DNA of 64,000 nt from Alphaproteobacteria bacterium (GTDB taxonomy: Bacteria; Pseudomonadota; Alphaproteobacteria; Rickettsiales; 21-14-0-20-44-7). The stretch is taken from positions 211,437 to 275,436 of the forward strand of contig JAYVPI010000001.1 of assembly GCA_043757405.1 (NCBI GenBank), read 5' to 3'. The position numbers and the translations under genes are program-made. Positions 20,925 to 61,536 of this stretch are shown piece by piece. The notes beneath the pieces are model-generated. The model was not told where the DNA came from, made no database searches, and saw only the letters and a list, made by a program, of their open reading frames with translations. Position 1 is the stretch's first letter, and each line of letters begins with the position of its first letter.

Positions 20925-21145
20925 GTCATTGCGAGCTCTTGCGCGGTGTTGTATGGTAAGACTCCATAACATAAATAAGGACTGTCATCCTCGAACCGAA
21001 GGTTCGGGGATCCAGGGTTAAAGCCACCGGCGGAGTGTTTGATCCTGGATCCCCGCCCAAGTGGGCGAGGATGACGGTGTCTGTTTTTGGTAATCAAATA
21101 TCAATAACTTACCGAGCCATGCAACAATGCCGCTCTTGCAATGAC
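20925..21145. repeat. Composite nested palindromic element: outer GTCATTGCGAG...CTTGCAATGAC, with inner GTCATCC...GGATGAC at 20984-21075
   Basis: The outer arms are imperfect inverted repeats and the inner element has two hairpin modules. The reverse complement closely matches 23849-24119. Confidence 0.8.
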
Positions 21146-21155
21146 GGCTATCATA

Positions 21156-21911
21156 TTAACGGAAGAAGATTCTGATTGCCTCTAATCCCGCCTCACTACC
21201 ATATGGCAAATTGCACATAATCAGCCCGGAGCCGAGTGTGTTGGCGGTTTTGGAGAATATAATTTCCTGCTGCCAAAACTTCGGTAAATTATAGGTTTTT
21301 ATGGTGTCGACCATCACATCATGCGCCCCACTTTTTAAGATTGGGTACCATAGCATGATCACCGTTTCCGGCCATTTCTTGTGGAGCTTGCGGACGAATT
21401 CAGCCGTCTGGCCATATTCATCCTTTATCTCATAACTAGGATCAATCAGCACCAGCCCGCGCCGCACAATCGGCGGCGAAAGCGCCAGGGTTTGGGCGTA
21501 ACCATCTTCATTATGGGTAAATACATTACTGTAATTACCCATATTATCTTTCAAAATCCGAAATTCCTGCGGGTGCAGTTCCATCAAAAACATACGGTCA
21601 TCACGGCGTAGGATTTTATGGGCGATTGTCGGCGAGCCGGGATAAATGTTTTTGGGCAGGGAGTTTAAGATTTTTGTATATGGATGATTGGCAGGGAGTT
21701 TGTTCCGCAAAGCAATAATCCCCGCATTAGCCTCCCCGGTTTTTGTAGATTCGACACTGCTCAAATCATACAGGCCGCGACCGGCATGAGTTTCCATATA
21801 ATAAAGCGGTTTGTCTTTTTGCACCAACTGCTCCAGCACAACCGCCAGCGCCGCGTGTTTTTGGACATCAGCCAGGCATCCGGCATGGTATATATGTTGA
21901 TATGAGAGCAT
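21156..21911 (-). CDS. rlmJ: 23S rRNA (adenine2030-N6)-methyltransferase RlmJ
   Basis: N-terminus MLSYQHIYHAGCLADVQKH. Length is about 250 aa. Confidence 0.85.
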   Translation of the reverse strand: MLSYQHIYHAGCLADVQKHAALAVVLEQLVQKDKPLYYMETHAGRGLYDLSSVESTKTGEANAGIIALRNKLPANHPYTKILNSLPKNIYPGSPTIAHKILRRDDRMFLMELHPQEFRILKDNMGNYSNVFTHNEDGYAQTLALSPPIVRRGLVLIDPSYEIKDEYGQTAEFVRKLHKKWPETVIMLWYPILKSGAHDVMVDTIKTYNLPKFWQQEIIFSKTANTLGSGLIMCNLPYGSEAGLEAIRIFFR

Positions 21912-21927
21912 GAATTAGAAATTGAAT

Positions 21928-22218
21928 TTAGCGCATTATATCGGCTTTAGCTTGAGAAGCTGTAAGTGCATTAGCGTTAAAACCATTCTGCTTTGCGGTT
22001 GCCATAATAAAATCTCTTTGAGTGGCCGCAATACCTATGGGCATATTTGATATATCAATTGTGACTCTAAATCGCGGTATATCAACATCTAGCTTGAAAT
22101 ACTTTAATATATCTCTGAATGCCGGTTCTCTAAGTATCCAGAAATTAATATTTATTGCGGCAGGAGCTATTGGCTGCTGGCTTATTACTATATGCGTTAA
22201 TTCTTCTGGTTTCACCAT
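21928..22218 (-). CDS. Hypothetical protein (start uncertain)
   Basis: The track ORF extends to 22293, but that GTG lies inside the tRNA. The first ATG is at 22218. The region is AT-rich and no family is recognised. Confidence 0.35.
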   Translation of the reverse strand: MVKPEELTHIVISQQPIAPAAININFWILREPAFRDILKYFKLDVDIPRFRVTIDISNMPIGIAATQRDFIMATAKQNGFNANALTASQAKADIMR

Positions 22219-22263
22219 ATACAAAGATATATGCGATATCTTAACAAATGTCAATATTTGAAG

Positions 22264-22348
22264 TGGTGCGGTTAAAAAGACTCGAACTTTCACCCCGTGA
22301 AGGACAGCGACCTCAACGCTGCGCGTCTACCAATTCCGCCATAACCGC
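22264..22348 (-). tRNA. tRNA-Leu (anticodon GAG), class II, CCA encoded
   Basis: Manual fold: acceptor GCGGTTA/TAACCGC; anticodon stem CAGCG/CGCTG with loop TTGAGGT; long variable arm; T-loop TTCGAGT. The 3' end is ACCA. Confidence 0.85.
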
Positions 22349-22395
22349 ACACTGGAAGCGGGTTTAGCAGGGGGCAGAAAAAGAATCAACTGATT

Positions 22396-22455
22396 TCGTT
22401 TATCGTTGATCGTTGATCGTAAATTGTATAACGGTAAACGATCAACGATAAACGA
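22396..22455. repeat. TCGTTGATCG-type palindromic element (copy 1)
   Basis: TCGTTTATCGTTGATCGTT and AACGATCAACGATAAACGA are perfect 19-bp arms around AAATTGTATA. The element is related to 46953-47024. Confidence 0.7.
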
Positions 22456-22459
22456 GCTC

Positions 22460-23071
22460 ATGCAAATCATAAGATCAAACGAGCTGGTAGATTATCCTTC
22501 GGCGCTTTCCTTCATGGAAAACCGGGTGGACGCGATTATTGAGGGCACGGCGGAAAACACGCTTTGGCTGCTGGAACATCCGCCACTATACACTTCAGGT
22601 ACCTCAGCCAAAATCTCGGATTTATTGCAGCCGGAATTTCCAGTTTACAAGGCCGGGCGTGGCGGGGAATATACTTATCACGGGCCAGGGCAGCGCGTGG
22701 TTTATGTTATGCGGCGGCTGGAGAAACATGACTTGCGGGCCTATGTGCGGGATTTGGAACAGTGGATAATCAATACGCTGGCGCATTTTGGGATCATGGG
22801 TGAGCGGCGTGAGGGGCGGATTGGAATTTGGGTGGCGGCGAATGGCAGCGAAGCAAAAATCGCAGCACTGGGAATCCGCGTGCGGAAATGGGTGGCTTAT
22901 CATGGGATCGCGATCAACGTGAAACCGGATTTGCGCCATTTTGGCGGAATTGTTCCCTGTGGGATTTCAGAATTTGGGGTGACATCGTTTGAGAAACTGG
23001 GAGTGAAAGTTTCGCTGAATGAAGTGGATGAAGTTTTGATTGAGGAATTCATAAAATTATTTAAAAACTAA
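22460..23071 (+). CDS. lipB: Octanoyltransferase LipB
   Basis: Contains [11 protein letters not shown] and [17 protein letters not shown]. The start is set at MQIIRSNE; the upstream part of the track ORF runs through the palindrome. Confidence 0.9.
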
Positions 23072-23072
23072 C

Positions 23073-23119
23073 GTCATCCTGAGCATAGCGAAGGATCTTT
23101 CGCTTGCGCTCAAGATGAC
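23073..23119. repeat. 48-bp-type palindromic element (GTCATYCTGAGCGCAAGCGAAGGATC... family), intergenic copy
   Basis: GTCATCCTGAGCATAGCGAAGGATCTTTCGCTTGCGCTCAAGATGAC begins 2 nt after the lipB stop. Confidence 0.8.
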
Positions 23120-23133
23120 GTATAGATGGAATT

Positions 23134-23848: not shown

Positions 23849-24119
23849 GTCATTGTGGGCTTAGCCAGCGTTGTTGCATGGCTCGGAAAGTTATTGATAT
23901 TTGGTCACCAAAAACAGACGCCGTCATCCTCGCCCGCTTGGGCGGGGATCCAGGGTCGAACACTCCGTAGGTGTCTGTAGCCCTGGATCCCCGAACCTTC
24001 GGTTCGAGGATGACAGTCTTTATTCGTGCTATGGAATCTTAACCATGCAACAACGCCGCTTAAAGCCGTAATCAATCTCCATGCTTGAGTTGAGATTGCG
24101 GCTCGTAGGCCGCAATGAC
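23849..24119. repeat. Composite nested palindromic element, inverted copy of 20925-21145 (inner element 23923-24014)
   Basis: Aligns base for base, with few differences, to the reverse complement of 20925-21145. It carries an extra hairpin, ATTGCGGCTCGTAGGCCGCAAT. Confidence 0.8.
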
Positions 24120-26730: not shown

Positions 26731-28490
26731 CCTTTTCGCCCAAACAGCTTCTCTACATCACTCAACTTTAATTCCACATATGTCGGCCGGCCGTGGTTGC
26801 ATTGGCCGGAGTGTGGCGTGGCTTCCATTTGGCGGAGCATTTCGTCCATTTCCTGGATGCTGAGTTTGCGGCCAGCGCGGATGGAATTGTGGCAGGCGGC
26901 GGTTTCCAATACATGCTCAAAAGCTTGCATCAGGCTCAAATCGGAGCCATGTTCGATGATGTCGTCGGCGATGTCTTTTAATAATTCGGAGGCGGAATGT
27001 TTGGTGAGTAAAGTAGGGATTTGCCGAACTTCGATTTCTCCCGCGCCAAATTTCTCAACTTCAAAGCCGAATTTGCTCAACACAAGTTTGAGGTTGAGGA
27101 TGATGTCTAATTGTTTTTCATTCAAGCGTATAATTTCGGGAACTAGCAAAGGCTGTTTTTGCAGACGGTTTTCGTCAATCTGGCTTTTGTAATTCTCATA
27201 AACCAGGCGCTCATGCGCTGCGTGTTGATCGACAATTACGATTGAATTTGCGGTTTCGGCTATAATATAAGTCGCATGCAATTGCGCCTTGGCGTGGCCG
27301 AGCGGATACCCTTCCCCAGCCCCTTCCTTGAGGGAAGAGGCTTCAATTATCTCCTCCTCCCTCAGGAAGGAGGTCGGGTGGAGGGTAAACGCCACGGCCT
27401 CTTCGCGCAGCGGCAGATAATTTGTTTGCGGCGCGTTGTAATAAGCGTTCTTATAAGCCGCTCCTGCATTATTGCGCGACATAGAGTGCAACGCGAAATC
27501 GGCAATCGTCGTCGAGGCTTTGTGGCCAGCAGAGCTGATGGCGCCGCGCAGGGCGGAAATTAATAAGCCGCTCATCATGCGGCCATCACGAAAACGGACT
27601 TCAGATTTGGCGGGGTGGACGTTGACATCAACTTCGGCGCTGGGAATTGTGATGAATAGCGCCAAAGCCGGAAAGCGGCCGCCGCCGAGGAAATCGGCAT
27701 AGGCGGCGCGGATCGCCCCTTGGAGGACTTTGTCTTTTACCGGACGGTTATTGACAAAGATATACTGGCTCTCGCTGGTGCGGCGGTTATAGGTTGGGAT
27801 GCCTGCGAAACCGGTGAGTTTTATGTCTCCGCGTATGGCGTCAATGGCGACGGAGTTGTCTCCGAAGTCATCACCGATAATATCAGATATTCTTTGCACT
27901 GGCGATGCGGGTAGGAAATGTAGTTTTTCTTTGCCGTCAACTTCAACTCTAAACGCAGTTTCAGGATTGGCCATAGCGATTTTGCGGATGATATCCAGGC
28001 ACTGCGATTTTTCGCTATCATCGGTTTTTAGAAATTTCAGGCGTGCGGGAGTGGCGAAGAATAAGTCACGCACATCAATTTTAGTGCCAGCGTGCGTTGG
28101 GGTTGGCTGTATCTCGCTAACATCGCCGCCGATAACTTCGATTTTCGCACCGCGGCTGCTGATTTTCAACTTTGCTACGGAGCCGATTGCGGGCAATGCC
28201 TCACCCCGGAAGCCGAAAAAGCGAATATTGAAAAGGTCATCGTCCAGTAATTTGGAAGTGGCGTGGCGTTGCACTGCCAGTTTCAATTCCTCGGCATTCA
28301 TGCCTATGCCATCGTCGGAAATGCTGATTAAGTTTTTTCCGCCAGCTTCGATTTTTATTTCGATATTTTTTGCACCGGCATCGAGGGAGTTTTCCACCAG
28401 CTCTTTAACTGCGGAACTTGGACGCTCAAGCACCTCACCGGCGGCGATGCGGTTGATTATATTTTGCGGGAGAAGGCGGATTATGGTCAT
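26727..28490 (-). CDS. mutL: DNA mismatch repair protein MutL
   Basis: Contains INRIAAGEVLERPSSAVKELVENSLDAGA. Length is 587 aa. Confidence 0.95.
   Translation of the reverse strand: MTIIRLLPQNIINRIAAGEVLERPSSAVKELVENSLDAGAKNIEIKIEAGGKNLISISDDGIGMNAEELKLAVQRHATSKLLDDDLFNIRFFGFRGEALPAIGSVAKLKISSRGAKIEVIGGDVSEIQPTPTHAGTKIDVRDLFFATPARLKFLKTDDSEKSQCLDIIRKIAMANPETAFRVEVDGKEKLHFLPASPVQRISDIIGDDFGDNSVAIDAIRGDIKLTGFAGIPTYNRRTSESQYIFVNNRPVKDKVLQGAIRAAYADFLGGGRFPALALFITIPSAEVDVNVHPAKSEVRFRDGRMMSGLLISALRGAISSAGHKASTTIADFALHSMSRNNAGAAYKNAYYNAPQTNYLPLREEAVAFTLHPTSFLREEEIIEASSLKEGAGEGYPLGHAKAQLHATYIIAETANSIVIVDQHAAHERLVYENYKSQIDENRLQKQPLLVPEIIRLNEKQLDIILNLKLVLSKFGFEVEKFGAGEIEVRQIPTLLTKHSASELLKDIADDIIEHGSDLSLMQAFEHVLETAACHNSIRAGRKLSIQEMDEMLRQMEATPHSGQCNHGRPTYVELKLSDVEKLFGRKG
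27301..27385. repeat. CCTCC/GGAGG double-hairpin element inserted in frame in the mutL linker
   Basis: The reverse complement aligns with 57667-57747 in thiC. It encodes ...PTSFLREEEIIEASSLKEGAGEGYP... Confidence 0.7.
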
Positions 28491-34683: not shown

Positions 34684-34699
34684 TATCCCTATGCTACAT

Positions 34700-34763
34700 G
34701 TCATCCTGCGACTTGATCGCAGGATCTCTTAGAGAAGACCCTATGGTCAAGCCATAGGATGAC
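34700..34763. repeat. GTCATCC...GGATGAC palindromic element, intergenic
   Basis: GTCATCCTGCGACTTGATCGCAGGATC...CCTATGGTCAAGCCATAGGATGAC. The left module is identical to the one in dnaE (42660). Confidence 0.85.
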
Positions 34764-34769
34764 GTATAT

Positions 34770-35417
34770 TTATGATTGAGATTTAAAGCCGATCGCGACA
34801 ATAAACGTCTCCGCTGAGTCCTTACGGCTGGCTTCCGGCTTTATGAACTTTACCTTATCATAATATTTATGCAGTTCTTTGGCGAATCCCTGTTCCTCGC
34901 CGCCTTGCAGAATTTTGGTTAGGAAGATGCCGCCCGTTCTCGTGTTTTCTAGAGCGAATTGCAGCGCCGTTTCCACCAATTCCATAATGCGCAAATGGTC
35001 CGTGTTGGGATAACCGCTGGAGGCTGCGGCCATATCAGAGATTACGGCGTCATATTTGCCGGAAATTAATGGGAGGATAGCGTCGTCAAGAAAATCGCCT
35101 TTGATAAAGCGCACGCCGGTAATCGGCTCCACATCCAGGAGATCGATAGCGGTGACGAGGCAACCGAGCTTCGCCGCATATTGGCTCCAGCCGCCGGGCG
35201 CGGAGCCAAGATCCATAACTTTCATGCCTTTTTTAATGACATGGGTTTTTTCGTTTATATCGATTAGTTTATAGACTGCGCGGCTGCGATAACCATCAAT
35301 CTTAGCCTGCCGCACAAACGGATCATTAAGCTGCCGCTCGAGCCATAACTTGGAGCTCATTTTGCGGCCTTTAGCGGTTTTAACGCGGGTCTTCTCGTTG
35401 CGTCCTGAGGTTTTCAT
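34770..35417 (-). CDS. rlmE: 23S rRNA (uridine2552-2'-O)-methyltransferase RlmE/FtsJ
   Basis: Contains RSRAVYKLIDINEK and DLGSAPGGWSQ. Confidence 0.9.
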   Translation of the reverse strand: MKTSGRNEKTRVKTAKGRKMSSKLWLERQLNDPFVRQAKIDGYRSRAVYKLIDINEKTHVIKKGMKVMDLGSAPGGWSQYAAKLGCLVTAIDLLDVEPITGVRFIKGDFLDDAILPLISGKYDAVISDMAAASSGYPNTDHLRIMELVETALQFALENTRTGGIFLTKILQGGEEQGFAKELHKYYDKVKFIKPEASRKDSAETFIVAIGFKSQS

Positions 35418-35848
35418 GGCTGGCGCACCTTGCCCGCCAGTTCCGGCATGACGCGGATAAAATCTTTTTCATTCAGCGTATAGATATTATCCGCCTGCGC
35501 TTTTTGCGCCGCATACATATGTATTGCATCATAAACCGCGCCACCGCGGATACCGTTCCTGGCAGCACTGGTTATTATTGTTAGATAATCATCTCCATCC
35601 ATGGAAACCAGGGAGATATTCCGCGTAAGGTCATCAATGATTGCCAAAATTTCCGCATGGGTAAAATATGCGCTAAACCGCCGCGCGCTCAAGACATTAT
35701 AAAACTCAGCCAGGCTATGCTGGCTGATAAAAGTATTTTTCTTGTTTGCCCGGGAAATTATCAACCCGCATATTTTGGAATGCGGGTTCATTTCATCAAG
35801 CGCCGCGATCAGGATCGAGGTGTCCAAGTAATTTATCTGTTCTTTCAT
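35414..35848 (-). CDS. vapC: PIN-domain toxin VapC
   Basis: Contains YLDTSILI (Asp), AEF (Glu), VYDAIH (Asp) and TLNEKDF. The stop overlaps the rlmE ATG (ATGA). Confidence 0.8.
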   Translation of the reverse strand: MKEQINYLDTSILIAALDEMNPHSKICGLIISRANKKNTFISQHSLAEFYNVLSARRFSAYFTHAEILAIIDDLTRNISLVSMDGDDYLTIITSAARNGIRGGAVYDAIHMYAAQKAQADNIYTLNEKDFIRVMPELAGKVRQP

Positions 35849-39192: not shown

Positions 39193-39203
39193 TAGTCACT
39201 CCC

Positions 39204-39229
39204 GTCATCCCCGCTTGCGTGAGGATGAC
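39204..39229. repeat. Minimal GTCATCC-hairpin-GGATGAC element between era and recO
   Basis: The sequence is GTCATCCCCGCTTGCGTGAGGATGAC. Its last base is the first base of the era stop-codon complement. Confidence 0.55.
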
Positions 39230-40110
39230 TAAGAAATATTTTTTTTGTCATCTGCTTTTTTCACCTTCACATGTAAAAACAAATGCACCTTATTCCCCAA
39301 CATTTTGCCAAGCTCCAGCCGCGAATTCTGGCCGATTTTTTTGATCATGCTGGCATTGTCGCCGATAATGATTTTTTTGTGACCAAGGCTGCCTGCATAA
39401 ATCGTTTGGTGGATGGTGATGCCTTTTGGACCATTGTCCTTATAAATATCAGTTTCCACATCAATCGCATATGGCAGTTCTTCGCGCAGGAGGTAGAAGA
39501 GTTTTTCCCGCGTAACTTCCGCGGCAGTAAAACGGTCATCTTTGTCGGAAAGTTGGTCTTCAGGATATGCCCAGGGCTGGTCGCCGGAGTTTTTTACTAA
39601 ATATTCCACCAATTCATCGATGCCTTTATTTTTGCTGACCGAGGTCATGAAAATTTCACCAAAAATTCCTGAGTCGAACAATTCCTGCGCCAGTTCCAAC
39701 TTGGCCTCCTGCTCGGCAATGTCGATTTTGTTGATTACCGCAACGGCCTTTACCGCGCCCTGCGCCTTGCTAATCTTGCCTCTAATACCATCAATAATCT
39801 TCTGTGATAATTCCGTCATCCCGCGTTTGGCGTCTAGCAGAAATACAATCTGCTCAACATCTCCAATCCCCTGCCAGGCATGATCCACCATCTTCTTCTG
39901 GCGGTCGTCGTGTGGATTCATGATTCCGGGAGTATCCACAAAAACCAATTGGGTTTCGCCCCTTACAACAATCCCGCGAATATTTTCGCGCGTGGTTTGT
40001 GGCCGCGGGGAAACGATACTAACTTTGGAACCGACAATATGATTCACCAACGAAGACTTGCCCGCATTTGGTGCGCCGCATATGCCGATAAATGATGATT
40101 TTTGGCTCAT
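39229..40110 (-). CDS. era: GTPase Era
   Basis: GAPNAGKSSLVN, DTPG and a KH domain are present. The start is set at MSQKSSFIG (40110); the 25 upstream codons of the track ORF are read-through of a repeat element. Confidence 0.9.
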   Translation of the reverse strand: MSQKSSFIGICGAPNAGKSSLVNHIVGSKVSIVSPRPQTTRENIRGIVVRGETQLVFVDTPGIMNPHDDRQKKMVDHAWQGIGDVEQIVFLLDAKRGMTELSQKIIDGIRGKISKAQGAVKAVAVINKIDIAEQEAKLELAQELFDSGIFGEIFMTSVSKNKGIDELVEYLVKNSGDQPWAYPEDQLSDKDDRFTAAEVTREKLFYLLREELPYAIDVETDIYKDNGPKGITIHQTIYAGSLGHKKIIIGDNASMIKKIGQNSRLELGKMLGNKVHLFLHVKVKKADDKKNIS

Positions 40111-40125
40111 GGCCACATGATATAC

Positions 40126-40173
40126 GTCATCTTGAGCGCAAGCGAAAGATCTTTCGCTCGCGCTCAAGATGAC
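40126..40173. repeat. 48-bp palindromic element at the era/dnaE junction
   Basis: GTCATCTTGAGCGCAAGCGAAAGA|TCTTTCGCTCGCGCTCAAGATGAC has one arm mismatch. It contains the dnaE stop codon (40164-40166). Confidence 0.85.
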
Positions 40174-43100
40174 GATGGAAGGCAAATGCCCTCGATGAAC
40201 ATTATCTGCTCTTTTAAATTATCATTCACCGCATAATATCCCGGCAGTTCCAGCACCACTTCGCTAACGCCCGTTTGCGCTTTTAATATTACGCGGTTTT
40301 TGAACAACATGCCGCTTTCATATATATTCGCAGCTAATAAATTTCTCAGTTTCGCCACCGCTTCCAGGTTATCTGCAACAAAATTCAAGTCCTGGACTTT
40401 TATAAAACGCAGGAAATTTGCCTTAATTGCCGCTTGCAATTCTTCTATCCTCTCTGCCAACAAACGCACACCACCTTCATCTTTCTTCGCCTCGGCCGTA
40501 ATCAATATCGGCGTATTACTCGCCAACATTTCCGCCGCGCGGGTGATTAGGTCATCTTCGTAGAGAACAATTTCAAACACCCCCATCCCATCCGAAACTT
40601 TCGCAAACGCAAACCGCCCACGCTTGCCGGAACGAATATTCAAGGTTGCCAGCACACCAGCTAAACGAACTTTGGTCGAAGCGCTCTTCAGGCGTTCTTC
40701 GATTTGTATTGATGGCAACACGCCCATTTCATCGAGGATATGCTGATAATCATTCAATGGATGGTCTGATAAATAAAACCCAAATGCCTCATATTCCGCC
40801 TTCAGACGCTCATTGGAATCCCAATCGCTGGCCTGTACTAACGAGGGTTTTGGCGCTTCGCCAATCGTTCCTTCGCCAAATAAGCTGATTTGCGAAGAGT
40901 CAATTTCTTCCTGGCAAATATTGTTATACCGGCTGAGCATCTCCGCCGATTCCAGGATCTGCCGGCGGTTGCAAGCCATGCCGTCAAACGCCCCTGCCTT
41001 CGCCAAACCTTCCAAATGCTTCTTATTAATCACCTTAACATCGCAGCGTTTGCAAAAATCAAACACATCGGCGAACTTCCCGTTCTCCTTCCTCTGCGCC
41101 GCCATTGCTTTCGCCGCTTCGATACCAACGCCTTTTAATGCACCTAGCGCATAACGGATTGAGCCGTTTTCAGGTTGGAAATAAGCCTCTGAGGAGTTGA
41201 TATCAGGAGACAAAACTTTGATACCGCGTTTGCTGGCTTCGTGTTTATAAAAGCTGAGTTTGTCGGTGTCGGCAATATCGAGGTTCATACAGGCGGTCAA
41301 AAACTCCACCGGGTAATGGCAGCTCAAATATGCTGTCTGGTAGGCAATCACCGAATAAGCCACCGCGTGGGATTTGTTGAAACCGTAACCGGCGAATTTG
41401 GCGATCAAATCAAAAATATCCGCCGCCAGTTTTTTATTGATCCCCTTCTCCGCCGCACCTTCGGCAAACATCAGGCGTTGTTCATCCATCTCCGCCTTAA
41501 TCTTCTTGCCCATCGCCCGCCGCAGCAAATCCGCTTTGCCAAGCGAATATCCGGCCAATATTTGCGCGGATTGCATAACCTGTTCTTGATAAACCAAAAT
41601 TCCATATGTCTCATTCAACAAATCCGACAATGAAATATGCGGATATTGCACCTCTTCCTTGCCGTGTTTCCGCGCATTATAACTCGGAATATTTTCCATC
41701 GGGCCGGGGCGGCAAAGCGAAGTTAGTGCCACGATATCCTCAAATTTATCAGGGCGCATTTTGCGAATTGCGTCTTTCACCAAAGTTGTATCCAACTGGA
41801 ATACACCCGCCGTTTCACCTTTGGAAAGCATATGGAAAATCTTCTCATCATCCAGCGGTAGGTTGTGGATATCAACTTTATTCCCCCCAGCCTCAACAAA
41901 CTGCCGCGCCTTATCCACCAGCGTCAATGTACGCAAACCGAGGAAATCGAACTTCACCAACCCGGCCGTTTCCGCATCTTTCATCGAATATTGCGAAACC
42001 GGCATTTCTGAGCGCGGGTCTTTATATAACGGCACCAACTCCACCAATGGCCGGTCAGCAATCAATATTCCCGCCGCATGTGTAGAAGCATGGCGATTCA
42101 ATCCTTCGAGTTTCAGCGCCACATTCAACAATCGTCCGATATTCTCATCATCACGTTGCAACCGCCGCAGTTCAGGATCCATATCTATCGCTTTGGAAAG
42201 CGTCACCGGGTCAATTGGATTGAACGGAATCATTTTAGAAATCCTATCAACTTCCATGTAGGGAATTTGCATCACCCGCCCGACATCGCGCAGCACCGCC
42301 CGCGCTTGTAGTTTTCCGAAAGTGATAATCTGGCAGACACGGTCGTGGCCATATTTATTACGCACATAATCGATCACCTCATCGCGCCGCTCCTGGCAGA
42401 AATCGATATCAAAATCCGGCATTGATACACGTTCAGGATTCAAGAACCGTTCAAACAGCAAGCCAAACCGCAACGGGTCAACATCGGTGATTTGTAGCGC
42501 CCAGGCTACTAAGGAACCTGCACCCGAACCCCGTCCCGGCCCCACCGGAATTCCCTGGCCCTTCGCCCATTTGATGAAGTCGGATACGATTAAGAAATAG
42601 CCCGGAAATTTCATCTTGATAATGACATCAAGCTCGAATTCCAGCCTAGTCCAATATTCGTCATCCTGCGACTTGATCGCAGGATCTTGTGAGTGCATCT
42701 CAGGAGGTCCTGCGGTCAAGCCGCAGGATGACGTTTTAGTATTTAAGCGCTCCTGCAAACCCTCACGCGCCTGCACCCGTAACTCATCTTCCTGCGTCCT
42801 GCCAGCCTCAGTTGGATAATCCGGCAACATCGGCTGACGTCCTTCTGCTTTAACCGAGCAACGTTTCGCAAGCTGCACCGTATTGGCAATCGCCTCCGGA
42901 ATATCCGCAAAAATCGCTATCATTTCCTCAGCTGATTTAAAATAGAATTGGTCGTTATATTTCTTGCGGTTTTCATCAACCAAATATTTGCCCTCGGCGA
43001 TACATATCAGCGCGTCATGGGCCTCGGACATATCCTGGGTTGAATAGAAGCAATTATTAGTGGCGATCAGTGGGAGATTATATTTATAGGCTATATCTAT

Positions 43101-43625: not shown

Positions 43626-43706
43626 GGTTCATTTATAAACCATGCAGTTGCCAAATATCAAATGCCAAATGTTAGTTCTGTTATTTGATATCTGACATTT
43701 GGCATC

Positions 43707-44378: not shown

Positions 44379-44396
44379 AACTCCATCCTTCAACAG

Positions 44397-44476
44397 CCGT
44401 CACCCCGCACTTGTTGCGGGGTCTATTCACAAGTTCATGCCCTGTAATGGATGCCGCAACAAGTGCGGGGTGACGG
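44397..44476. repeat. GTCACCCCG...CGGGGTGAC palindromic element between lolC/E and lolD
   Basis: Perfect 23-bp inverted arms CCGTCACCCCGCACTTGTTGCGG / CCGCAACAAGTGCGGGGTGACGG flank 34 bp. Confidence 0.9.
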
Positions 44477-46949: not shown

Positions 46950-46952
46950 AAG

Positions 46953-47024: not shown

Positions 47025-47089
47025 AAAGCTTGACTTTGCTGTGGGCGATGGCTAAAAACCCTGACAAATCAAAGAATCGGATAAGAAAA

Positions 47090-47263: not shown

Positions 47264-47655
47264 GTCTTTCAGACATCGGACTTCAGTGAAAAAGGGCCAC
47301 AGGGAATTAAAAGTTTGGCAAAAATCTGTGGAGTTGGTTGATAATGTATACAACCTCATAGAGAAATTTCCTAAACATGAAATTTATTCTTTATCTACCC
47401 AATTAAAAAGATCCGCGGTCTCCGTTCCCTCAAACATAGCAGAGGGCTCAGCTAGAAAATCTGACAAAGAATTCATACGTTTTTTGAATATTGCATACGG
47501 CTCATTGGTGGAAGCGGATACGCAAATTTACATAGCCGAAAAAAGAAAATATATCTCCTCTGAAGAAGCAATTTCTATTATCAATGATCTTAACGAAGTA
47601 GGCAGAATGATAAATGGCCTAAGAAACTACTTACTGAAGTCCGATGTCTGAAGAC
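47264..47655. mobile_element. IVS-like hairpin cassette: 22/23-nt inverted repeats enclosing a four-helix-bundle ORF
   Basis: The left arm is GTCTTTCAGACATCGGACTTCAG (47264-47286). The right arm is CTGAAGTCCGATGTCTGAAGAC (47634-47655). They are complementary apart from one extra T. Confidence 0.5.
47286..47651 (+). CDS. Four-helix-bundle protein ('23S rRNA intervening sequence protein' / Avd-like family)
   Basis: Family hallmarks LKVWQKS...FPKHEIYSLSTQLKRSAVSVPSNIAEGSAR...FLNIAYGSLVE are present. The GTG start lies at the last base of the left stem and the stop lies inside the right stem. Confidence 0.8.
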   Translation: MKKGHRELKVWQKSVELVDNVYNLIEKFPKHEIYSLSTQLKRSAVSVPSNIAEGSARKSDKEFIRFLNIAYGSLVEADTQIYIAEKRKYISSEEAISIINDLNEVGRMINGLRNYLLKSDV

Positions 47656-49654: not shown

Positions 49655-50377
49655 CTATTTTTTATCGCAAACCGCCTCAAAAAATATCGCCCGCGTGGTA
49701 TTGGCGAGGTTTTTCTTCTGATACTTAGTTTCAATATGGTCAATAGGTTGTGTTTGCCAATCTGCCCTGGAACCTGCCAACCAACGAAATTTATCGTGTT
49801 CCAGCAATTCTCTGGCGATCCATTTAGCATAATCTTCGTGATCCGTGGCAATTCTGAGCCTGGCATCCCGCTTCATAATTCGTGCAAGCAAGTCTAAAGT
49901 TTGCTTCGATATTATCCGGCGTTTATTCTGCCGTTTCTTTGGCCACGGATCGGGGAACAGTATAAATACACGATCAATAACTCCCTCCCACACGTCATCC
50001 TGCGGCTCGACCGCAGGATCTCCTATGGTCAAGCCATATGGTGACGTAATTAATTGACGAAAATCTCCGGCATAGACTCGGATATTCTTAAGCTCATTCT
50101 CTTCAATCCCACGCAATAATTTTACAGTTCCGTTTACAAACGGCTCGCAGCCAATAAAGCCAATTTTGGGATTTGCCAGCGCCTGATGCAATAAATGACC
50201 ACCATCACCAAAGCCGATCTCCAGCCAGATTTCTTTGAAATCAAACTTAGGAAAGCCGTCAACTTTCACTTTGGGCAAAACTTCCGCCAACAGCTTTTTG
50301 GAATTATCACGCAGCTTGCGCGACTTGGTACGACCAAAGCTTTGCAGGTATTTAGGCGACTGCTTTGCGTAATTCAT
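49655..50377 (-). CDS. trmB: tRNA (guanine46-N7)-methyltransferase TrmB
   Basis: Contains [14 protein letters not shown]. The start is set at ATG 50377 and overlaps the metK 3' end by 26 nt. The track's 50443 start is less likely. Confidence 0.85.
49994..50045. repeat. GTCATCC...GGTGAC element inserted in frame in trmB
   Basis: GTCATCCTGCGGCTCGACCGCAGGATCTCCTATGGTCAAGCCATATGGTGAC encodes [17 protein letters not shown]. Confidence 0.8.
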
Positions 50378-51548: not shown

Positions 51549-51575
51549 TTGGATACCTTGAATATCTGTTATATC

Positions 51576-51659
51576 GTCACCCCGGACTCGTTCCGGGGTC
51601 TGGCATTAGACACAATCTCTTGCCTCAACTTCCGGATCGCGGAACCAGTCCGCGATGAC
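51576..51659. repeat. GTCACCCCGG...CGCGATGAC two-hairpin element in the metK leader
   Basis: The hairpins are CCCCGGACTCGTTCCGGGG and ATCGCGGAACCAGTCCGCGAT. The architecture is that of the superfamily. Confidence 0.7.
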
Positions 51660-51693
51660 GATTATTAATGATGAAGTGGGTTTAACAGAGCTC

Positions 51694-52194: not shown

Positions 52195-53760
52195 TTAAAC
52201 TTTTCTTCTAAAAATTAATAAAAACTCCACACTGATTATGATTAATCCAAATATTATCCAATCACCGTATAATGAATATATAGTTACCGAATTATTTAAT
52301 TCAAGATCGGCGGATAAAAATCCATGCTGATTATAAGCCAATGATTTTACAATCCGCCCATTCTTATCAATAATCGCCGAAACTCCTGTATTAGCCGCCC
52401 GCAACATTGGCACCCCTTGCTCAATTGAACGCATTTGCGACATCGCCAGATGTTGATACGGCCCCGTCGAATTTCCAAACCACCCATCATTAGTAACATT
52501 AACCAGCAAATCCGGCTTGACTGCCGAATGGGAAAATTCCGGAAATGTGACTTCATAACAAATCAACGGCAAAAACCCCGGCCCGTTTTTATATTTCATC
52601 ACCTCACGCTTGCCCCCTTGCGAAAAATCCAGCGCTCCAGGCGTAATTTTTTCCAGCGGCAAATAATTCCGGAACGGCACAAACTCCCCAAACGGCACAA
52701 GGTGAATTTTGTCATAAGACTGATAAATCCCATCTTTGCTGATAGCATAAAGCGTGTTCCAAACCTGGTAATTACTTTTGCTTTCCCCGCTAGAGCGCAA
52801 CCCGCCAGTAACCAACACCCCATTATCCGGCGCCACACGCCTCAACAAATCCGTCACTGGCTGCTGCCGGTTCAAATAATAAGGCGCTCCCGATTCCGGC
52901 CACAAAACTATATCCGCGTTTTTATAATCCAGCGTCTGCATGAAATCTATATTCTCAATAAACTGCTTCTTCGCCGCCAACGGCTCCCACTTCAACGATT
53001 GCTCAACATTGGGTTGGAAGATTATGACTTTGGCAGTTTTATCTAAATCACCCTCACCTTTGCCAAAACATAACAGGCCATACAGAATTATAATCCCTAC
53101 AAGAGCAACAACCCCAACAAGTGATTTCTTATTTTTATAATAAAGCGGCAATAGCGAAATAATTATCACTACATAGCTCAACAAATAAACTCCGCCCGCT
53201 GAAGCAAGCTGTGAAAAAATAGTTGAAACTAGTGCCGTATATCCAATCAAATTCCATGGAAACCCCGTGAACAACCATGTGCGGATTAATTCAAAAACCA
53301 CCCATAATATAGAGAAAAGGATAATATCATTCCAATTCCCGCATTTGTCATCCTCGGGCTTGACCCGAGGGTCCAGCGATGAGTATGCCGCATGGCTGGA
53401 TCCCAGCCTTCGCTGGGATGACCTAAATGCGAGAGCAAACAACCCAATATAAATCGCCAGACCAAATGGAATCCCGCATACCGCAAACGGAATCAGCCAC
53501 GCAAATTTTTCTGCATCAACAAGTAGTGAGTTAGCAATCCAATATAAGCCAAACACAAAATACCCAAAGCCGAATGCCCAGCCGATTTTGAATGCCTGTA
53601 TCTTATTTTCCGCCGCAGCAAGAATTTTAAAAAATATTGGGAATGAGATAAATAAAACCGGAAAGATATAAAACGGCGCCAATGCCAAATCCGCCAATCC
53701 GCCAGCGGCAATTAGCGTTAAATACTTCAGCTTTCCTTGCAAAAAAAATTTTATCCCCAT
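52195..53760 (-). CDS. lnt: Apolipoprotein N-acyltransferase
   Basis: An N-terminal polytopic region and a CN-hydrolase domain with the LICYEVTFPE catalytic Cys context are present. Confidence 0.9.
   Translation of the reverse strand: MGIKFFLQGKLKYLTLIAAGGLADLALAPFYIFPVLFISFPIFFKILAAAENKIQAFKIGWAFGFGYFVFGLYWIANSLLVDAEKFAWLIPFAVCGIPFGLAIYIGLFALAFRSSQRRLGSSHAAYSSLDPRVKPEDDKCGNWNDIILFSILWVVFELIRTWLFTGFPWNLIGYTALVSTIFSQLASAGGVYLLSYVVIIISLLPLYYKNKKSLVGVVALVGIIILYGLLCFGKGEGDLDKTAKVIIFQPNVEQSLKWEPLAAKKQFIENIDFMQTLDYKNADIVLWPESGAPYYLNRQQPVTDLLRRVAPDNGVLVTGGLRSSGESKSNYQVWNTLYAISKDGIYQSYDKIHLVPFGEFVPFRNYLPLEKITPGALDFSQGGKREVMKYKNGPGFLPLICYEVTFPEFSHSAVKPDLLVNVTNDGWFGNSTGPYQHLAMSQMRSIEQGVPMLRAANTGVSAIIDKNGRIVKSLAYNQHGFLSADLELNNSVTIYSLYGDWIIFGLIIISVEFLLIFRRKV
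53347..53422. repeat. GTCATCC...GGGATGAC element inserted in frame in lnt
   Basis: GTCATCCTCGGGCTTGACCCGAGG...GATCCCAGCCTTCGCTGGGATGAC encodes GSSHAAYSSLDPRVKPEDD. Confidence 0.8.
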
Positions 53761-53763
53761 AAC

Positions 53764-53834
53764 GTCATCCTGCGGCTTGACCGCAGGAACTCCTCATACA
53801 CGCACCAGACCCTGCAATCAAGTAGCAGGGTGAC
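53764..53834. repeat. GTCATCC...GGGTGAC element at the lnt start / bioF end
   Basis: GTCATCCTGCGGCTTGACCGCAGG...CCCTGCAATCAAGTAGCAGGGTGAC. It contains the bioF stop (53818-53820) and lies 3 nt upstream of the lnt ATG. Confidence 0.8.
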
Positions 53835-54951
53835 ACATATTTAGTGTTTTAAGCCAATCCGCCAATAAATCAATTTCACTTTTCGTATGCGCCGCCGTCA
53901 CCGAAATGCGGAGCCGCGCCGTCCCCTTAGGCACCGTTGGCGGCCGCATCGCCGAGACTAGTATTTTATTATCCTTAAGCAACTTCTCCGCCGCTAGCGC
54001 CTTTTCCTCGCTGCCCAAAATAATAGGAACGATACTTGAAGTTCCGTCATTACGAGCGAAGCGCGGCAATGACGATTTAAGATATTCCGTATTCTTCAAT
54101 ACTTTCAAATATAGCTCATCCCGCCCAGCAATCTCCAGCGCCTTTATCGCCGCACCAACCGCGAATGGCGGCAGCCCAGTTGAATAAATCAATGATCGCG
54201 CCTTAGTCTCCAAATACCGAATCAAAGCCCGAGAACCACAAACATACCCCCCATAACTCCCCAGCGCCTTTGACATTGTCCCGATATAAATGTGAGCTTT
54301 AAGTTTTGATTTTTGATAAATGGAGTGTGCGCCGTCAACTATTAGTGTGCAGTTGTTTTTATCGGCGATTTCCTTCAGCTCATCAACCGGAGCAAAATCC
54401 CCATCCATTGAAAAGATCTCTTCGGTGATGATGAGCCGCCTGCGCTTATCGTCATTCTGAGCGCAAGCGAAGGATCCTTCGCTTGCGCTCAGAATGACGT
54501 CTTTCTCCAAACACTTCTTCAAGTCAGCAACATCATTATGCTTAAACCGCACCAGCTTTGCGCCGGAGAGCTTTATTGCGTCGATTATAGAAGCGTGGAC
54601 TAATTTATCGGCATAAACCACTTCCGGCTCCAGCGCTGTGATAACGCCAAGATTTGCCAGATATCCGCTGCCAAATACCGTGGCGGCCTCATAACCTTTA
54701 TAAGCCGCGATTTTTTCAGCAAATTCCCCAAATAATGGATGATTTCCGCCCGCAATCCTGCTTGCCCCCGCTCCTGCGCCATATTTTTCCGCAGCTTCTA
54801 TTCCGGCAATAATCACTTCCGGATGGCGGCTTAAACCTAAATAATCATTTGATGTAAAATTGATAAATCCTTCCCCCCACTCACCCTTGGGCGTTCGCAG
54901 GAGATTTTTATCCTTCAAATCATTTAGTTTTTGCTGTAATAGACTATCCAT
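53818..54951 (-). CDS. bioF: 8-amino-7-oxononanoate synthase
   Basis: SNDYLGL and the PLP-Lys context [12 protein letters not shown] are present. The start is set at ATG 54951 (MDSLLQQKL...); the track's 55011 start is TTG. Confidence 0.85.
54451..54498. repeat. Perfect 48-bp palindrome inserted in frame in bioF
   Basis: GTCATTCTGAGCGCAAGCGAAGGA|TCCTTCGCTTGCGCTCAGAATGAC has 24+24 arms with no mismatch. It encodes [16 protein letters not shown]. Confidence 0.9.
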
Positions 54952-55900
54952 GAACATCCGACACGATTGGAAACAGTCTGAAGTTATAGATTTATTCGCC
55001 CTGCCTTTCAACGACCTAATATTTCAGGCCGCCAGCGTGCACCGCGCCAATCATGATCCAAACGCGGTTCAAATCTCGACATTACTCTCCATAAAAACCG
55101 GCGGCTGCGCGGAAGATTGTAAATATTGCCCGCAATCCGCATCATATGACACCCCCGTAAAAGCCGAAAAACTCACCACAGTTGAACATGTCCGCTCCGA
55201 GGCCACAAAAGCCAAAGCCGCCGGAGCTTCCCGCTTTTGCATGGGCGCCGCCTGGCGTTCGCCTAAGGATCGGGATTTGGATAATGTTATTGAGATGGTG
55301 AAGGTGGTGAAGGATCTGGGGTTGGAGTCGTGCTGCACATTGGGCATGTTGACGAAACCACAAGCCGAGAAATTGAAGGATGCGGGGCTGGATTATTACA
55401 ACCACAACATCGATACTTCCCCGGAATATTACGGAAATATAATCACCACCCGCACCTTCCAAGACCGCCTCGATACACTCGCGCATGTGCGCGAGGCCGG
55501 AATGAAAACCTGCTGCGGCGGCATAGTAGGAATGGGCGAATCAGTGGCCGACCGCGCCGGTATGCTGCTGACATTGGCGAATTTGCCTGAACACCCGGAA
55601 TCCGTCCCGATTAATCTGCTAGTCCCAGTCGAAGGCACCCCATTCGGCAATCGGCAATCGGCAATCGGCAATCTCGACTTCGTCCGCATGATCGCCGTGG
55701 CGCGGATATTAATGCCAAAATCCGCAATACGCCTGTCAGCAGGCCGCGAAGAAATGTCAGACGAAATGCAGGCGTTATGTTTCCTAGCGGGTGCAAATTC
55801 GATTTTTTATGGCGAAAAATTATTAACCACTCCGAATCCGGAAGCCCTTGAAGATAAGAAGCTTTTTGACCGACTGGGTCTTAAAGCTATGGCAGTTTAA
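54950..55900 (+). CDS. bioB: Biotin synthase
   Basis: The radical-SAM motif [11 protein letters not shown] is present. The start is the first ATG, at 54950 ([16 protein letters not shown]). Confidence 0.95.
55645..55673 (+). repeat. Heptanucleotide tandem repeat (CGGCAAT)x4 +1 inside bioB
   Basis: The run is perfect: cggcaat cggcaat cggcaat cggcaat c. It encodes GNRQSAIGN. Confidence 0.95.
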
Positions 55901-55934
55901 TTGACCATTAATCCCTTTCCCCTAATATCCCCCC

Positions 55935-59082
<3,148 letters not shown>

Positions 59083-59136: not shown

Positions 59137-59469
59137 ATGGCAAGACGTATTAAAAATGACGGCGTTTATTTTTGCAAAGCTTTAGGACGTGATTTCGTAG
59201 TTACCGAAACGGCACTCAACAATGTTTTATATGTCCGTGGCCTAAGAAGTATTCCTGGTCAAGAACGCGAGAGAGAGGAACTGGCAGAAATCGTTGGCGG
59301 CAGGAACAATACTGACAGAACAGACTTCATACATGCGATAATTAGAAGCAATCCATCAACCACCATGAATGAAAGAAGGACTTTATGGGACGAATTGATG
59401 AAAAAATCCCCAGCTTTACTAAGGGTTATATGCCCCAAAAATGAACCTCAGGAACTTTCTATTGGCTAA
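59137..59469 (+). CDS. Hypothetical protein (paralogue A)
   Basis: The ATG follows GAAGAGGG. The C-terminal segment FIHAIIRSNPSTTMNERRTLWDELMKK resembles the next ORF. Confidence 0.45.
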   Translation: MARRIKNDGVYFCKALGRDFVVTETALNNVLYVRGLRSIPGQEREREELAEIVGGRNNTDRTDFIHAIIRSNPSTTMNERRTLWDELMKKSPALLRVICPKNEPQELSIG

Positions 59470-59522
59470 ATTGTAATTTCTTACTTGCATATCACCCCAA
59501 ATAGCCTTAATAACTATTAACC

Positions 59523-59810
59523 ATGATCCGTCGAGCATTTACACATCTTGCATTAAAAACAGAGCCCTACCAATCAGCGGCCTTGCATCGCGAAATTTAT
59601 CTCTCAGCTCCAGCTATTAATGCACTAATAAAAGAAAAGGCTAGGGCAACTCCTGACATGGGAAAATTACACTTTCGCGACGCTATTGAAAAAGTAAATC
59701 CAGGAATTACAATTCCTGATAGCAGATTGTTATGTGACGAATTATTTGCCAAAACTGCTGATGATTTAACGGCATTGAAACCTATTGGCAGAGTCTCAAG
59801 CAAAGCCTGA
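59523..59810 (+). CDS. Hypothetical protein (paralogue B)
   Basis: FRDAIEKVNPGITIPDSRLLCDELFAK aligns with the preceding ORF at about 14/39 identities by eye. Confidence 0.45.
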   Translation: MIRRAFTHLALKTEPYQSAALHREIYLSAPAINALIKEKARATPDMGKLHFRDAIEKVNPGITIPDSRLLCDELFAKTADDLTALKPIGRVSSKA

Positions 59811-59818
59811 TTAGCACT

Positions 59819-60697
59819 TTAGGGCTTAGTAATATACTGATATTGCTTAAACCAAGCATCCACATCTTCCAGGACCGGTGCGCGGTTTCTGGCGATGATG
59901 GTTAATGACGCGATGATGTCTATGTGATCGACATTATCATAAAATTTTATTTTATATTCCCCGCCCCTCGCATCAAGTCCGCCTTTTAGGTGGGTGATGT
60001 TTATTTCGCCTACAACGCTGTCTTTTTTGCCCCACAGCAATAACATCGGCGCTTGTTTGCCGTCTATGAAGTTGGTTACGCGGATTAATTTATAATTATC
60101 ACCGGCGGTGGAGAACATTTTGACATAATATTCTTCCTCAGGTGTGAAGTCATAGGGGCCGGCCAATCCGGCGAATGCTTTTATCCATGAGCGATCGCCG
60201 CCGGCTCTTTTCATATATTGGTTATCGGTGGCCAATAATGCCCCGATCTGGGCACCGGCTGAATGCCCGAGCACGTTTATATGTCCGGAGTCTCCTTGAT
60301 ATTTATCGATATTATTATGCACCCATGCCACCGCCCTTGCCGATTCATCTTGCCAGACTGGAAATTTATATTGCGGGTATTTTACATAATCCGGGATCAC
60401 GACAACATAACCGCGGCTTGTAAATGCATCAGCGGTAAAGCGGTACATCTCCTTTGTCCCCATCCGCCAGCCGCCGCCATAGAAATAAATAATTACCGGG
60501 TGGTTTGGCTTATTATCATTGGGCACATAGACATCAAGTTTTGAGCCGTGCCCGCCGCCAAAGTCTATGTCGCGGGTGATTTTTTGATCGGAGAAATATG
60601 CCGGGAGGTTAGCGATAAAACCCATCGCCCTCGCGCTATTAACCGCAAAAAGCAAAACGAGACCAATAAATAGCAGTAGGCTAAGAATTATTTTCAT
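59819..60697 (-). CDS. Secreted alpha/beta-hydrolase fold-3 esterase/lipase
   Basis: Signal peptide, oxyanion motif YGGGW and nucleophile elbow GHSAG are present. The ATG overlaps the stop of the upstream gene. Confidence 0.7.
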   Translation of the reverse strand: MKIILSLLLFIGLVLLFAVNSARAMGFIANLPAYFSDQKITRDIDFGGGHGSKLDVYVPNDNKPNHPVIIYFYGGGWRMGTKEMYRFTADAFTSRGYVVVIPDYVKYPQYKFPVWQDESARAVAWVHNNIDKYQGDSGHINVLGHSAGAQIGALLATDNQYMKRAGGDRSWIKAFAGLAGPYDFTPEEEYYVKMFSTAGDNYKLIRVTNFIDGKQAPMLLLWGKKDSVVGEINITHLKGGLDARGGEYKIKFYDNVDHIDIIASLTIIARNRAPVLEDVDAWFKQYQYITKP

Positions 60698-61425
60698 TCA
60701 AAGGTTAGAATTTTTCTCTTTTTCAAGTAACGTACAGCACCCATCATAGCCACGCATAATAAAGAAGCTATTATGAGACTTATTTCGATGTTGCCGGTGG
60801 TGATGTAGAGCTTATACTGCTCAATGAATAAAATTATCAAAAATGTAGTGAAAATTGTTGGGTAATCTTTGATAATGACTTTGCGGAAGTTGAAAAACAT
60901 CCCTTTAGTCGCAGTGCGGAATTGCGTGAAATCGATAATCCAACGGTTGGTTTGCATTTCGTAAACATCATATTCGGCACCAAATTTATTGCGTAAATAT
61001 CTTTCCTCAGTGGCGATGATGCAGATATAGATAAAATAAAATAACAAGGAACCAACGACTATTGCCAGAGGCGTGCCGTAAAAGAGGAAAATGCCAACGT
61101 AGATTAGCATATTGCCATAATAAAGCGGGTTCCGGCAGATGGTGAACATGCCTTCCGTCACCAATTTATCGGCGAAGACTTGTTTATTGACTCCGCCGCG
61201 TTTGATATATGCAAAACCGATGACCAATGCACGCACCAGAAGTCCGGATAGCGAAAGAAGGATCGCTATTCCATCTTTGATGCCTTCAATGGCATTAGCG
61301 CGGAATAATGCATATGGCGGCTGGATCAGGAACAACACCCCGATAACAAGTGGAAACACTTTGTTGCGATATTTAAAAAAGAAATTGCCGATTTTGACGA
61401 TTGTATCGTTTTTATAAATGCTCAT
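60694..61425 (-). CDS. Isoprenylcysteine carboxyl methyltransferase (ICMT/PEMT) family membrane protein
   Basis: Polytopic protein with the RNPLYYGNMLIYVG motif, typical of the family. Confidence 0.7.
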   Translation of the reverse strand: MSIYKNDTIVKIGNFFFKYRNKVFPLVIGVLFLIQPPYALFRANAIEGIKDGIAILLSLSGLLVRALVIGFAYIKRGGVNKQVFADKLVTEGMFTICRNPLYYGNMLIYVGIFLFYGTPLAIVVGSLLFYFIYICIIATEERYLRNKFGAEYDVYEMQTNRWIIDFTQFRTATKGMFFNFRKVIIKDYPTIFTTFLIILFIEQYKLYITTGNIEISLIIASLLCVAMMGAVRYLKKRKILTFE

Positions 61426-61442
61426 AACTCTCCAGACTTCCT

Positions 61443-61536
61443 GTCACCCCGTCCCCAGCCTTCGCTGGGGCAAGCCTTTGTGACGGGGTCAAGCGGTTCT
61501 TGTAAACGCCAGACCCCGCAACAAGTGCGGGGTGAC
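61443..61536. repeat. Mosaic GTCACCCC...GGGGTGAC element
   Basis: The right arm CCGCAACAAGTGCGGGGTGACGG (61516-61538) is identical to 44454-44476. The internal CCCAGCCTTCGCTGGG is identical to the module in lnt (53402-53417). Confidence 0.8.

Follow-up and report, generated by a model that had tools for sequence, protein, structure and literature searches.

What are the short palindromes that lie in and between the housekeeping genes of an uncultured alphaproteobacterium, and how did they get there? The question is raised by a stretch of 64,000 nucleotides (GenBank assembly GCA_043757405.1, contig JAYVPI010000001.1, positions 211,437 to 275,436; hereafter the window). An original prediction, made from its letters alone, listed 15 copies of a modular palindromic element there and likened their behaviour to that of Rickettsia palindromic elements (RPEs), leaving the family open. 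The described family that they match is that of the CGTC-tagged repetitive extragenic palindromes (REPs; Di Nocera et al. 2013, PMC3733652). The best explanation, and in our view a highly probable one, is that the elements are CGTC-tagged REP dimers, the same class as the motifs called NTS or SRM, which have spread recently by an inferred mechanism involving the nuclease Ssn. What is new is the host; the kind of element has been described before. Earlier publications cover the type of element, its organisation in modular dimers, the in-frame copies within genes (those in dnaE and trmB too) and the nuclease partner.

CGTC-tagged REP dimers in the window

A CGTC-tagged REP unit has an unpaired CGTC, TGTC or CCTC tag, a stem of 8-9 bp whose first two bases are almost always A then T, a loop of 4-5 nt and a tail of three unpaired bases, mostly CCA (PMC3733652). 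According to the same work, the units mostly form head-to-head (HH) homo- or heterodimers with spacers of 1-2 or 20-100 bp, are occasionally nested in longer palindromes, lie within ~20 bp of the 3' ends of open reading frames (ORFs) and, as intragenic dimers, encode ~20-30 aa. The superfamily, with families CGTC-1 to CGTC-4, occurs chiefly in Alphaproteobacteria (PMC3733652). The elements of the window share the tag, stem length, A-T stem start, loop length and, in part only, the CCA-like tail, together with the HH homo- and heterodimers, the spacer range and the nesting in larger palindromes. They also share the position after stop codons, the in-frame genic copies (~16-26 aa) and the alphaproteobacterial host.

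The termini had been predicted as GTCAYCC...GGRTGAC; these are present, and the conserved end proved one base longer (YGTC...GACR). The tags at the 30 unit ends are CGTC (21), TGTC (7), AGTC (1) and GGTC (1). Perfect stems measure 8-9 bp in 10 units and 7 bp in 1, and mostly start with AT; those of the GTCACCCC type begin A then C. Loops have 5 nt (CTTGA, CTCGA, CTTGT, CTCGT, CTGGT) or 4 nt (GAAG), apart from unit 53809-53834, which has a 9-nt loop owing to mismatches. Six units carry a CCA tail (both units each of the 20984, 23923 and lnt copies); the others end in CTC, CTT, CTG and similar, and the C right after the stem is nearly always kept. The two units of the lnt copy differ, the left having a 9-bp stem and a 5-nt loop and the right an 8-bp stem and a GAAG loop. 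All 15 copies are in HH orientation, with the tags outside, units alike or different and spacers of 0-45 nt, and several module types lie side by side within the window. The shuffling of modules between copies that had been predicted corresponds to the homo- and heterodimers of PMC3733652, and the shared modules were all named correctly: CCCAGCCTTCGCTGGG, CCTGCGGCTCGACCGCAGG and CCTGCGACTTGATCGCAGG each occur in two copies, and one 23-mer is common to positions 44454 and 61516.

Some features differ from the published CGTC-tagged REPs. The host is a new, uncultured alphaproteobacterium, and coding contact is unusually high, with 5 copies in frame and 3 at stop codons out of 15. In the GTCACCCC variant, the second stem pair is C-G instead of T-A. 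Three copies lack a spacer and are palindromes in which the single units pair, and reach nine stem pairs, only through tandem G-A mismatches.

We asked whether the repeats exceed what chance and assembly could produce. The motif GTCAYCY occurs 43 times in the window, compared with 15.0 +/- 3.5 in dinucleotide-preserving shuffles, none of 100 of which reached 43. When we required GTCA to lead into a perfect stem of 7 bp or longer, 13 modules were found in the window and 0-1 in shuffles. All 15 predicted copies were recovered in place. A covariance model of one hairpin module, run over the whole window on both strands with filters off and matches kept to E <= 5, detected modules in every copy except the collapsed 26-nt copy 39204-39229, for which no match was obtained at that cutoff. 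The model added a single unit at 24094-24119 that the original prediction had missed, and it returned no unit in the first 20 kb, in line with the statement that this part is free of copies. When 10 copies were folded as single-stranded DNA, z-scores ranged from -4.6 to -11.8 and no shuffled sequence was equally stable. An independent Logan short-read contig (L116, run SRR23617274) is 100% identical to window 40129-44420 over 4,292 nt, including the dnaE copy, which argues against an assembly artefact. Its ends fall within the REP dimers 40126-40173 and 44397-44476, as expected of true repeats.

The host genes dnaE, trmB, lnt, bioF, bioA, era, lipB and yaaA were confirmed with NCBIfam. For the five insert-bearing proteins, NCBIfam matches were to the host enzyme families only (E <= 0.001; the presence of an RPE-1 model in the library is unconfirmed). 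Rfam at gathering thresholds matched tRNA alone. A permissive Rfam scan of 53300-57100 matched a perfect palindrome to a plant microRNA, a hit that we rejected as spurious.

The comparison with Rickettsia fits the same family. RPE-4 of R. conorii is CGTC-4 and RPE-6 is CGTC-1, and Neisseria dRS3 is also a member of the superfamily (PMC3733652). The supplement of that paper lists dnaE and trmB among the REP-interrupted genes of R. conorii and gives the REP-encoded peptides DGRVKPGHD, WILRSSRGMT and VIPAKAGI; the peptides encoded in the window are of the same kinds. In-frame insertion in housekeeping genes, with CGTC units in dnaE and trmB, is thus common to RPEs and the window elements, but the insertion positions in these two genes differ from those in R. 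conorii. RPE-1 elements are about 100-150 bp long. They differ from the window elements in being longer, and they are described apart from the CGTC units, being treated separately as 'longer palindromic insertions' (PMC3733652).

The modules extend far beyond this lineage. In a genome-collection scan, the 24-mer GTCATCCTGCGRCTYGAYCGCAGG occurred in at least 115 stretches from many phyla, with Alpha- and Gammaproteobacteria, Omnitrophota, Anaerolineaceae, Thermodesulfobacteriota, Muiribacteriota and others among the matches listed. The listed loci hold at least 254 units and at least 73 doublets of 58-123 nt with the same dimer architecture. Compensatory stem changes were seen at 7 of 9 pairs; the percentage of pairing in these units is itself circular, since the units were picked for forming hairpins. 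The presence of near-identical 24-nt modules in distant phyla suggests horizontal spread of REP-ssn units.

Insertion sites and reading frames

The CGTC copies of the window are non-autonomous, lineage-specific insertions that have spread recently. A DnaE protein search returned an identical protein, then relatives at 89-90%, 83%, 81% identity and below, the best named matches being 50-52% identical; exact-match queries with the Lnt and YaaA proteins gave no hits. The 25-residue DnaE segment encoded by the repeat was absent from all 13 aligned orthologues, one of them 89-90% identical, which bears out the predicted in-frame insertion. We then compared DNA from two relatives with 89% and 83% identical DnaE, namely L117 (13.4 kb) and L118 (23.4 kb, syntenic with window ~34-54 kb). 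These 36.8 kb of syntenic DNA contain no elements, whereas the window span aligned to L118 holds nine. The blastn blocks stop at each element, and fine alignments revealed empty sites for nine copies, the one at 34699..34764 having an empty site in both relatives. Empty sites in close relatives at every comparable copy indicate that the copies are insertions.

Alignment of the host proteins with solved structures confirmed the extra segments in DnaE, TrmB, Lnt, BioF and BioA. BioA gains 22 aa between E. coli residues 370 and 379, BioF and TrmB gain ~15 aa each, and Lnt and DnaE also carry extra segments. The DnaE insert lies opposite E. coli residues ~303-319, a stretch of variable length among orthologues. 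An AlphaFold prediction of DnaE from a 14-sequence alignment was poor overall (mean pLDDT 67.5, pTM 0.44), and its low confidence was not specific to the insert: residues 292-320 fell below pLDDT 50, but so did residues 334-413.

The five genic copies (dnaE, trmB, lnt, bioF and bioA; 5 of the 15) all keep the reading frame, as had been claimed, and encode 16-26 aa. Those in dnaE, trmB, lnt and bioA share one phase, yielding peptides like SSCG...DPxVKPxDD; this frame had been proposed for every genic copy, and the bioF copy proved to be read in the other open frame. Counted as YGTC...GACR, the copies in dnaE, trmB, lnt and bioA measure 75, 54, 78 and 66 nt. These are all multiples of three, so that a target duplication is not needed to keep the frame.

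Three further copies supply or overlap stop codons, those of dnaE, bioF and era. The copies 40126-40173 and 53764-53834 had been treated as intergenic; they do lie near stops, yet they are not purely intergenic, as they contain the dnaE and bioF stops, and the former encodes the last two DnaE residues. The era stop (39229-39231) overlaps the last base of copy 39204-39229. Every intergenic copy follows a stop codon, the unnested ones 0-33 nt away or overlapping it. The bioF and lnt genes of the relative L118 share 4 nt, but in the window they are set apart by a 73-nt dimer, whose end carries AGGA, a motif resembling a Shine-Dalgarno sequence, 7 nt upstream of the start of lnt. Five essential or central enzymes are longer by 16-26 residues, and the stop codons of three genes come from a repeat. 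The elements are listed in Table 1.

Table 1. CGTC-tagged REP elements of the window, by position
Element	Position	Details
Larger palindromic element	20925..21146	CGTC REP heterodimer 20983-21076 (94 nt) at centre
Larger element, second inverted copy	23852..24119	REP dimer 23922-24015 and single REP 24094-24119 (minus strand)
Spacer-less dimer	23072..23120	Near-perfect ~49-nt palindrome; directly after lipB stop, 13 nt before yaaA start
HH heterodimer, 66 nt	34699..34764	Between convergent permease and rlmE/ftsJ genes (15 and 5 nt from stops)
Collapsed dimer, 28 nt	39203..39230	Two tags and outer stem bases only; overlaps era stop
Spacer-less dimer, 50 nt	40125..40174	Holds dnaE stop TGA 40164-40166; ends 23 nt upstream of era start
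HH dimer, 75 nt	42659..42733	In frame in dnaE, residues 298-322
HH homodimer	44397..44476	GTCACCCCGCA type, 8-bp stem, 5-nt loop; between lolE stop and lolD start
HH heterodimer, 54 nt	49993..50046	In frame in trmB, residues 133-150
HH heterodimer, 86 nt	51575..51660	Between stop of helix-turn-helix gene and metK start
HH heterodimer, 78 nt	53346..53423	In frame in lnt, residues 113-138
HH heterodimer, 73 nt	53763..53835	Last codons and stop of bioF; ends 2 nt before lnt start
Spacer-less dimer	54450..54499	Perfect 50-nt palindrome in bioF; 48 nt GTCA-TGAC in frame, residues 172-187
HH near-homodimer, 66 nt	56998..57063	In frame in bioA, residues 355-376
HH heterodimer, 96 nt	61442..61537	Between methyltransferase stop and start of PEMT-family gene

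The copies at 20984-21075 and 23923-24014 had been described as nested in larger palindromes, and this was confirmed; such nesting is also described in PMC3733652. These two larger elements form a 174-nt inverted repeat (20957-21130 and 23868-24041, 90% complementary), with a REP dimer nested in each. It brackets 2.7 kb containing rlmJ, a tRNA gene, lipB and yaaA, and could serve as a substrate for inversion.

The distribution along the window is uneven. Positions 1-20000 contain no CGTC unit and the next 41 kb contain 15 copies, an arrangement with a chance of ~0.004 under uniform placement. The repeat-free part carries clpP, clpX, lptD, surA, ksgA, alr, mlaEF, fliR and sodB, as well as ruvX, rimK, a flagellin gene, fliW and an xthA-like gene. 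Clustering of such motifs has been reported for Neisseria.

The Ssn nuclease and the possible route of spread

We searched for a gene associated with the repeats by clustering the ORFs of repeat-bearing loci. A GIY-YIG ORF of ~95 aa lies exactly between two inverted REPs in two gammaproteobacterial genomes (L048 and L077), and homologues were found in two more. The alignment of this protein was then scanned against metagenomes, and 80 loci were selected by protein homology alone. A REP unit lies upstream in 54 of them, downstream in 59 and on both sides in 44. Among GIY-YIG genes with enough flank, 40 of 69 are bracketed by REPs, compared with 2 of 375 other ORFs, and 160 of the 220 units in these loci adjoin the ssn gene. 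Conservation of the REP-ssn-REP unit starts and ends at the tags, and the flanks differ. REPs located away from the gene match the stem type of the bracketing REPs of their locus in 25 of 40 cases (null mean 14.6, maximum 21), and a CCA tail is almost universal in the flanking units. The ssn genes of the cultured Azospirillum lipoferum 4B, Novosphingobium aromaticivorans, Sinorhizobium meliloti and Neisseria gonorrhoeae are each flanked by CGTC-type hairpins; these species are all hosts named in PMC3733652. The REP types of the window itself bracket ssn in other genomes (loci L048, L077, L119 and L151, and L202 of S. meliloti).

Although we reached this association of gene and repeat independently, it is already published (Chenal et al. 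2025, PMC11893778). In that work, the 94-aa GIY-YIG nuclease Ssn (family cd10448 in CDD) binds the hairpin of the NTS motif, generalised as SRM, in single-stranded DNA exclusively and on just one of the two strands, cutting the DNA a few nucleotides upstream of the motif; activity was found for Neisseria and Wolbachia homologues. Motifs lie near 71% of Ssn homologues and on both sides of 42%, and 81% of genomes with more than 200 motifs encode a homologue (PMC11893778). The NTS-ssnA-NTS layout was described as insertion-sequence-like, with mobility as a hypothesis only, and the system modulates natural transformation in Neisseria meningitidis (PMC11893778). The window elements belong to the same motif class (NTS is CGTCATTCCCGCGMAVGCGGGAATCYRG), and their REP types flank ssn elsewhere. 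They differ in location: 2% of NTS lie inside genes in N. meningitidis (PMC11893778), whereas about half of the copies here touch coding sequence.

The layout of the ssn loci varies. On plasmid AZO_p3 of A. lipoferum 4B (255106-256181, locus L199), sufB and sufC are separated by a GIY-YIG gene of the ssn type, which has a full CGTC-1 dimer on each side, instead of single units. Many metagenome REP-ssn-REP units (L133-L172 and others) are asymmetric, with ATTCCTGC upstream and ATTCCCGC downstream, an arrangement kept across unrelated contexts.

From these observations a route of spread can be proposed. The hairpin would form in single-stranded DNA, where Ssn, a small single-domain GIY-YIG nuclease, would bind one orientation and nick a few nucleotides outside the tag. 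Full-length units would be REP-ssn-REP, with insertion-sequence boundaries, and the short dimers may be gene-less derivatives of them moved in trans, a view on which we find the evidence evenly balanced. The genome presumably encodes a cognate Ssn. Genic survivors would be those copies that lengthen the gene by 3n bases, lie in variable loops and use one of two stop-free frames; outside genes, copies would accumulate just after stop codons. The density of REP dimers, about one per 3 kb over 40 kb, would then reflect a burst that is recent and may be continuing, with one or more Ssn nucleases driving it as a single-stranded-DNA transposase, which we put forward tentatively, at somewhat less than even confidence.

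Several points weigh against this account. No demonstration of transposition by Ssn exists: what was shown is single-strand cleavage and an influence on natural transformation, the insertion-sequence-like origin being only hypothesised (PMC11893778). Acting on an HH dimer, Ssn would make one cut per strand, at opposite sides, a pattern that differs from the same-strand excision of IS200/IS605 and does not point to a clear transposition chemistry. The several module types in the window would require several Ssn enzymes or one with relaxed specificity. In the 64-kb window, tblastn with the Ssn protein found no ssn gene, and the ORFs scanned include no transposase of any kind. Furthermore, with the DNA of the relatives only ~71-82% identical to the window, the insertion junctions are not readable to the base; the divergence of these flanks and the position of the sites in variable loops also hide any target-site duplications.

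The same partnership would be read differently if the repeats were mainly recognition sites of a host-domesticated Ssn that controls single-stranded DNA, for instance by restricting transforming DNA that enters the cell, as in Neisseria, and if their spread were due not to Ssn but to a route such as another transposase or recombination. Single-strand cleavage and modulation of transformation are the only demonstrated biology of Ssn and NTS (PMC11893778), and for CGTC REPs no dedicated transposase was found and mobilisation by unrelated enzymes was proposed (PMC3733652). However, the edges of REP-ssn-REP are sharp at the tags in unrelated contexts, as is typical of mobile units, and lineage-specific copies, about half of them touching coding sequence, look parasitic rather than like placed regulatory sites; we regard domestication as possible but rather unlikely. 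REPINs, doublets of GTAG-type REPs moved by a REP-associated tyrosine (RAYT; Y1/HUH) transposase, have the same overall architecture of two inverted hairpins and a spacer, and the mosaic make-up of the copies recalls the bacterial interspersed mosaic elements (BIMEs) of gammaproteobacteria. The likeness to both extends to the hairpin unit, the unpaired tetranucleotide tag, the inverted doublets and mosaics and a small nuclease gene bracketed by repeats. The tag here, however, is CGTC or TGTC and not GTAG, scanning of the window ORFs turned up no Y1 transposase, no RAYT flanked by CGTC units is known in the literature (PMC3733652), and the bracketed gene encodes a GIY-YIG nuclease instead of a Y1/HUH transposase, making REPINs a very improbable identity.

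An equally improbable one is that of classical MITEs (miniature transposable elements with inverted repeats), derived from insertion sequences that encode a DDE transposase and have terminal inverted repeats and target-site duplications. Like MITEs, the copies are short, dispersed and inverted at their ends (CGTCATCC...GGATGACG), but each end folds on itself into a hairpin and shows compensatory stem changes. We see no target duplication, the in-frame copies being 3n with their tags and nothing added, and no DDE transposase with these ends was seen in ~1 Mb of repeat-carrying loci. We find it scarcely credible that the repeats are assembly artefacts, or that they arose in situ as terminator hairpins or as hairpins stabilising mRNA. 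The genome was assembled from a metagenome, and most intergenic copies lie right after stops, where terminators belong; against this stand the identical independent assembly with its ends inside two repeats, the identical modules at unrelated loci and in other phyla, and the relatives without copies.

Other repeats and implications

The window contains other repeats and accessory genes. A second family of in-frame palindromic inserts, without a CGTC tag, is found in thiC (57668-57745) and mutL (27318-27385), each insert being a pair of small hairpins of the CCTCCTCCCTCAGGGAGGAGG type. Compared with the Caulobacter protein, ThiC has 24 extra aa, which lie between residues 162 and 167, and the mutL insert lies between the Pfam-matched N- and C-terminal domains. 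Palindromes built of TCGTTGA/CGATAAA heptamer runs, unrelated to the CGTC units, occur at 22391-22460, between a tRNA gene and lipB, and at 46944-47025, upstream of a tRNA-synthetase-like gene (45726-46949). Two ORFs are absent from the L118 gene order as annotated: 47286-47651, a member of the 23S rRNA intervening-sequence protein/bAvd-like family, and 35414-35848, which encodes a PIN domain.

The case adds a new host and a clean example and no new principle. Specific to it are a recent dense expansion, a high share of coding contact and several module types side by side. On the practical side, CGTC repeats break short-read assemblies, as the ends of contig L116 illustrate, and seed spurious small ORFs. 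A clade with both filled and empty sites provides material suited to testing how CGTC repeats move. That the expansion is dense and lineage-specific, and that near relatives have empty sites, argues for CGTC REPs still being able to proliferate. If the burst is indeed driven by Ssn, it would contradict the suggestion that the CGTC families are relics heading for extinction (PMC3733652), and the frame-neutral design, in which each strand offers two open frames and the length is often 3n, would explain survival in essential genes. The clade would then lend itself naturally to demonstrating the movement of DNA by Ssn enzymes.

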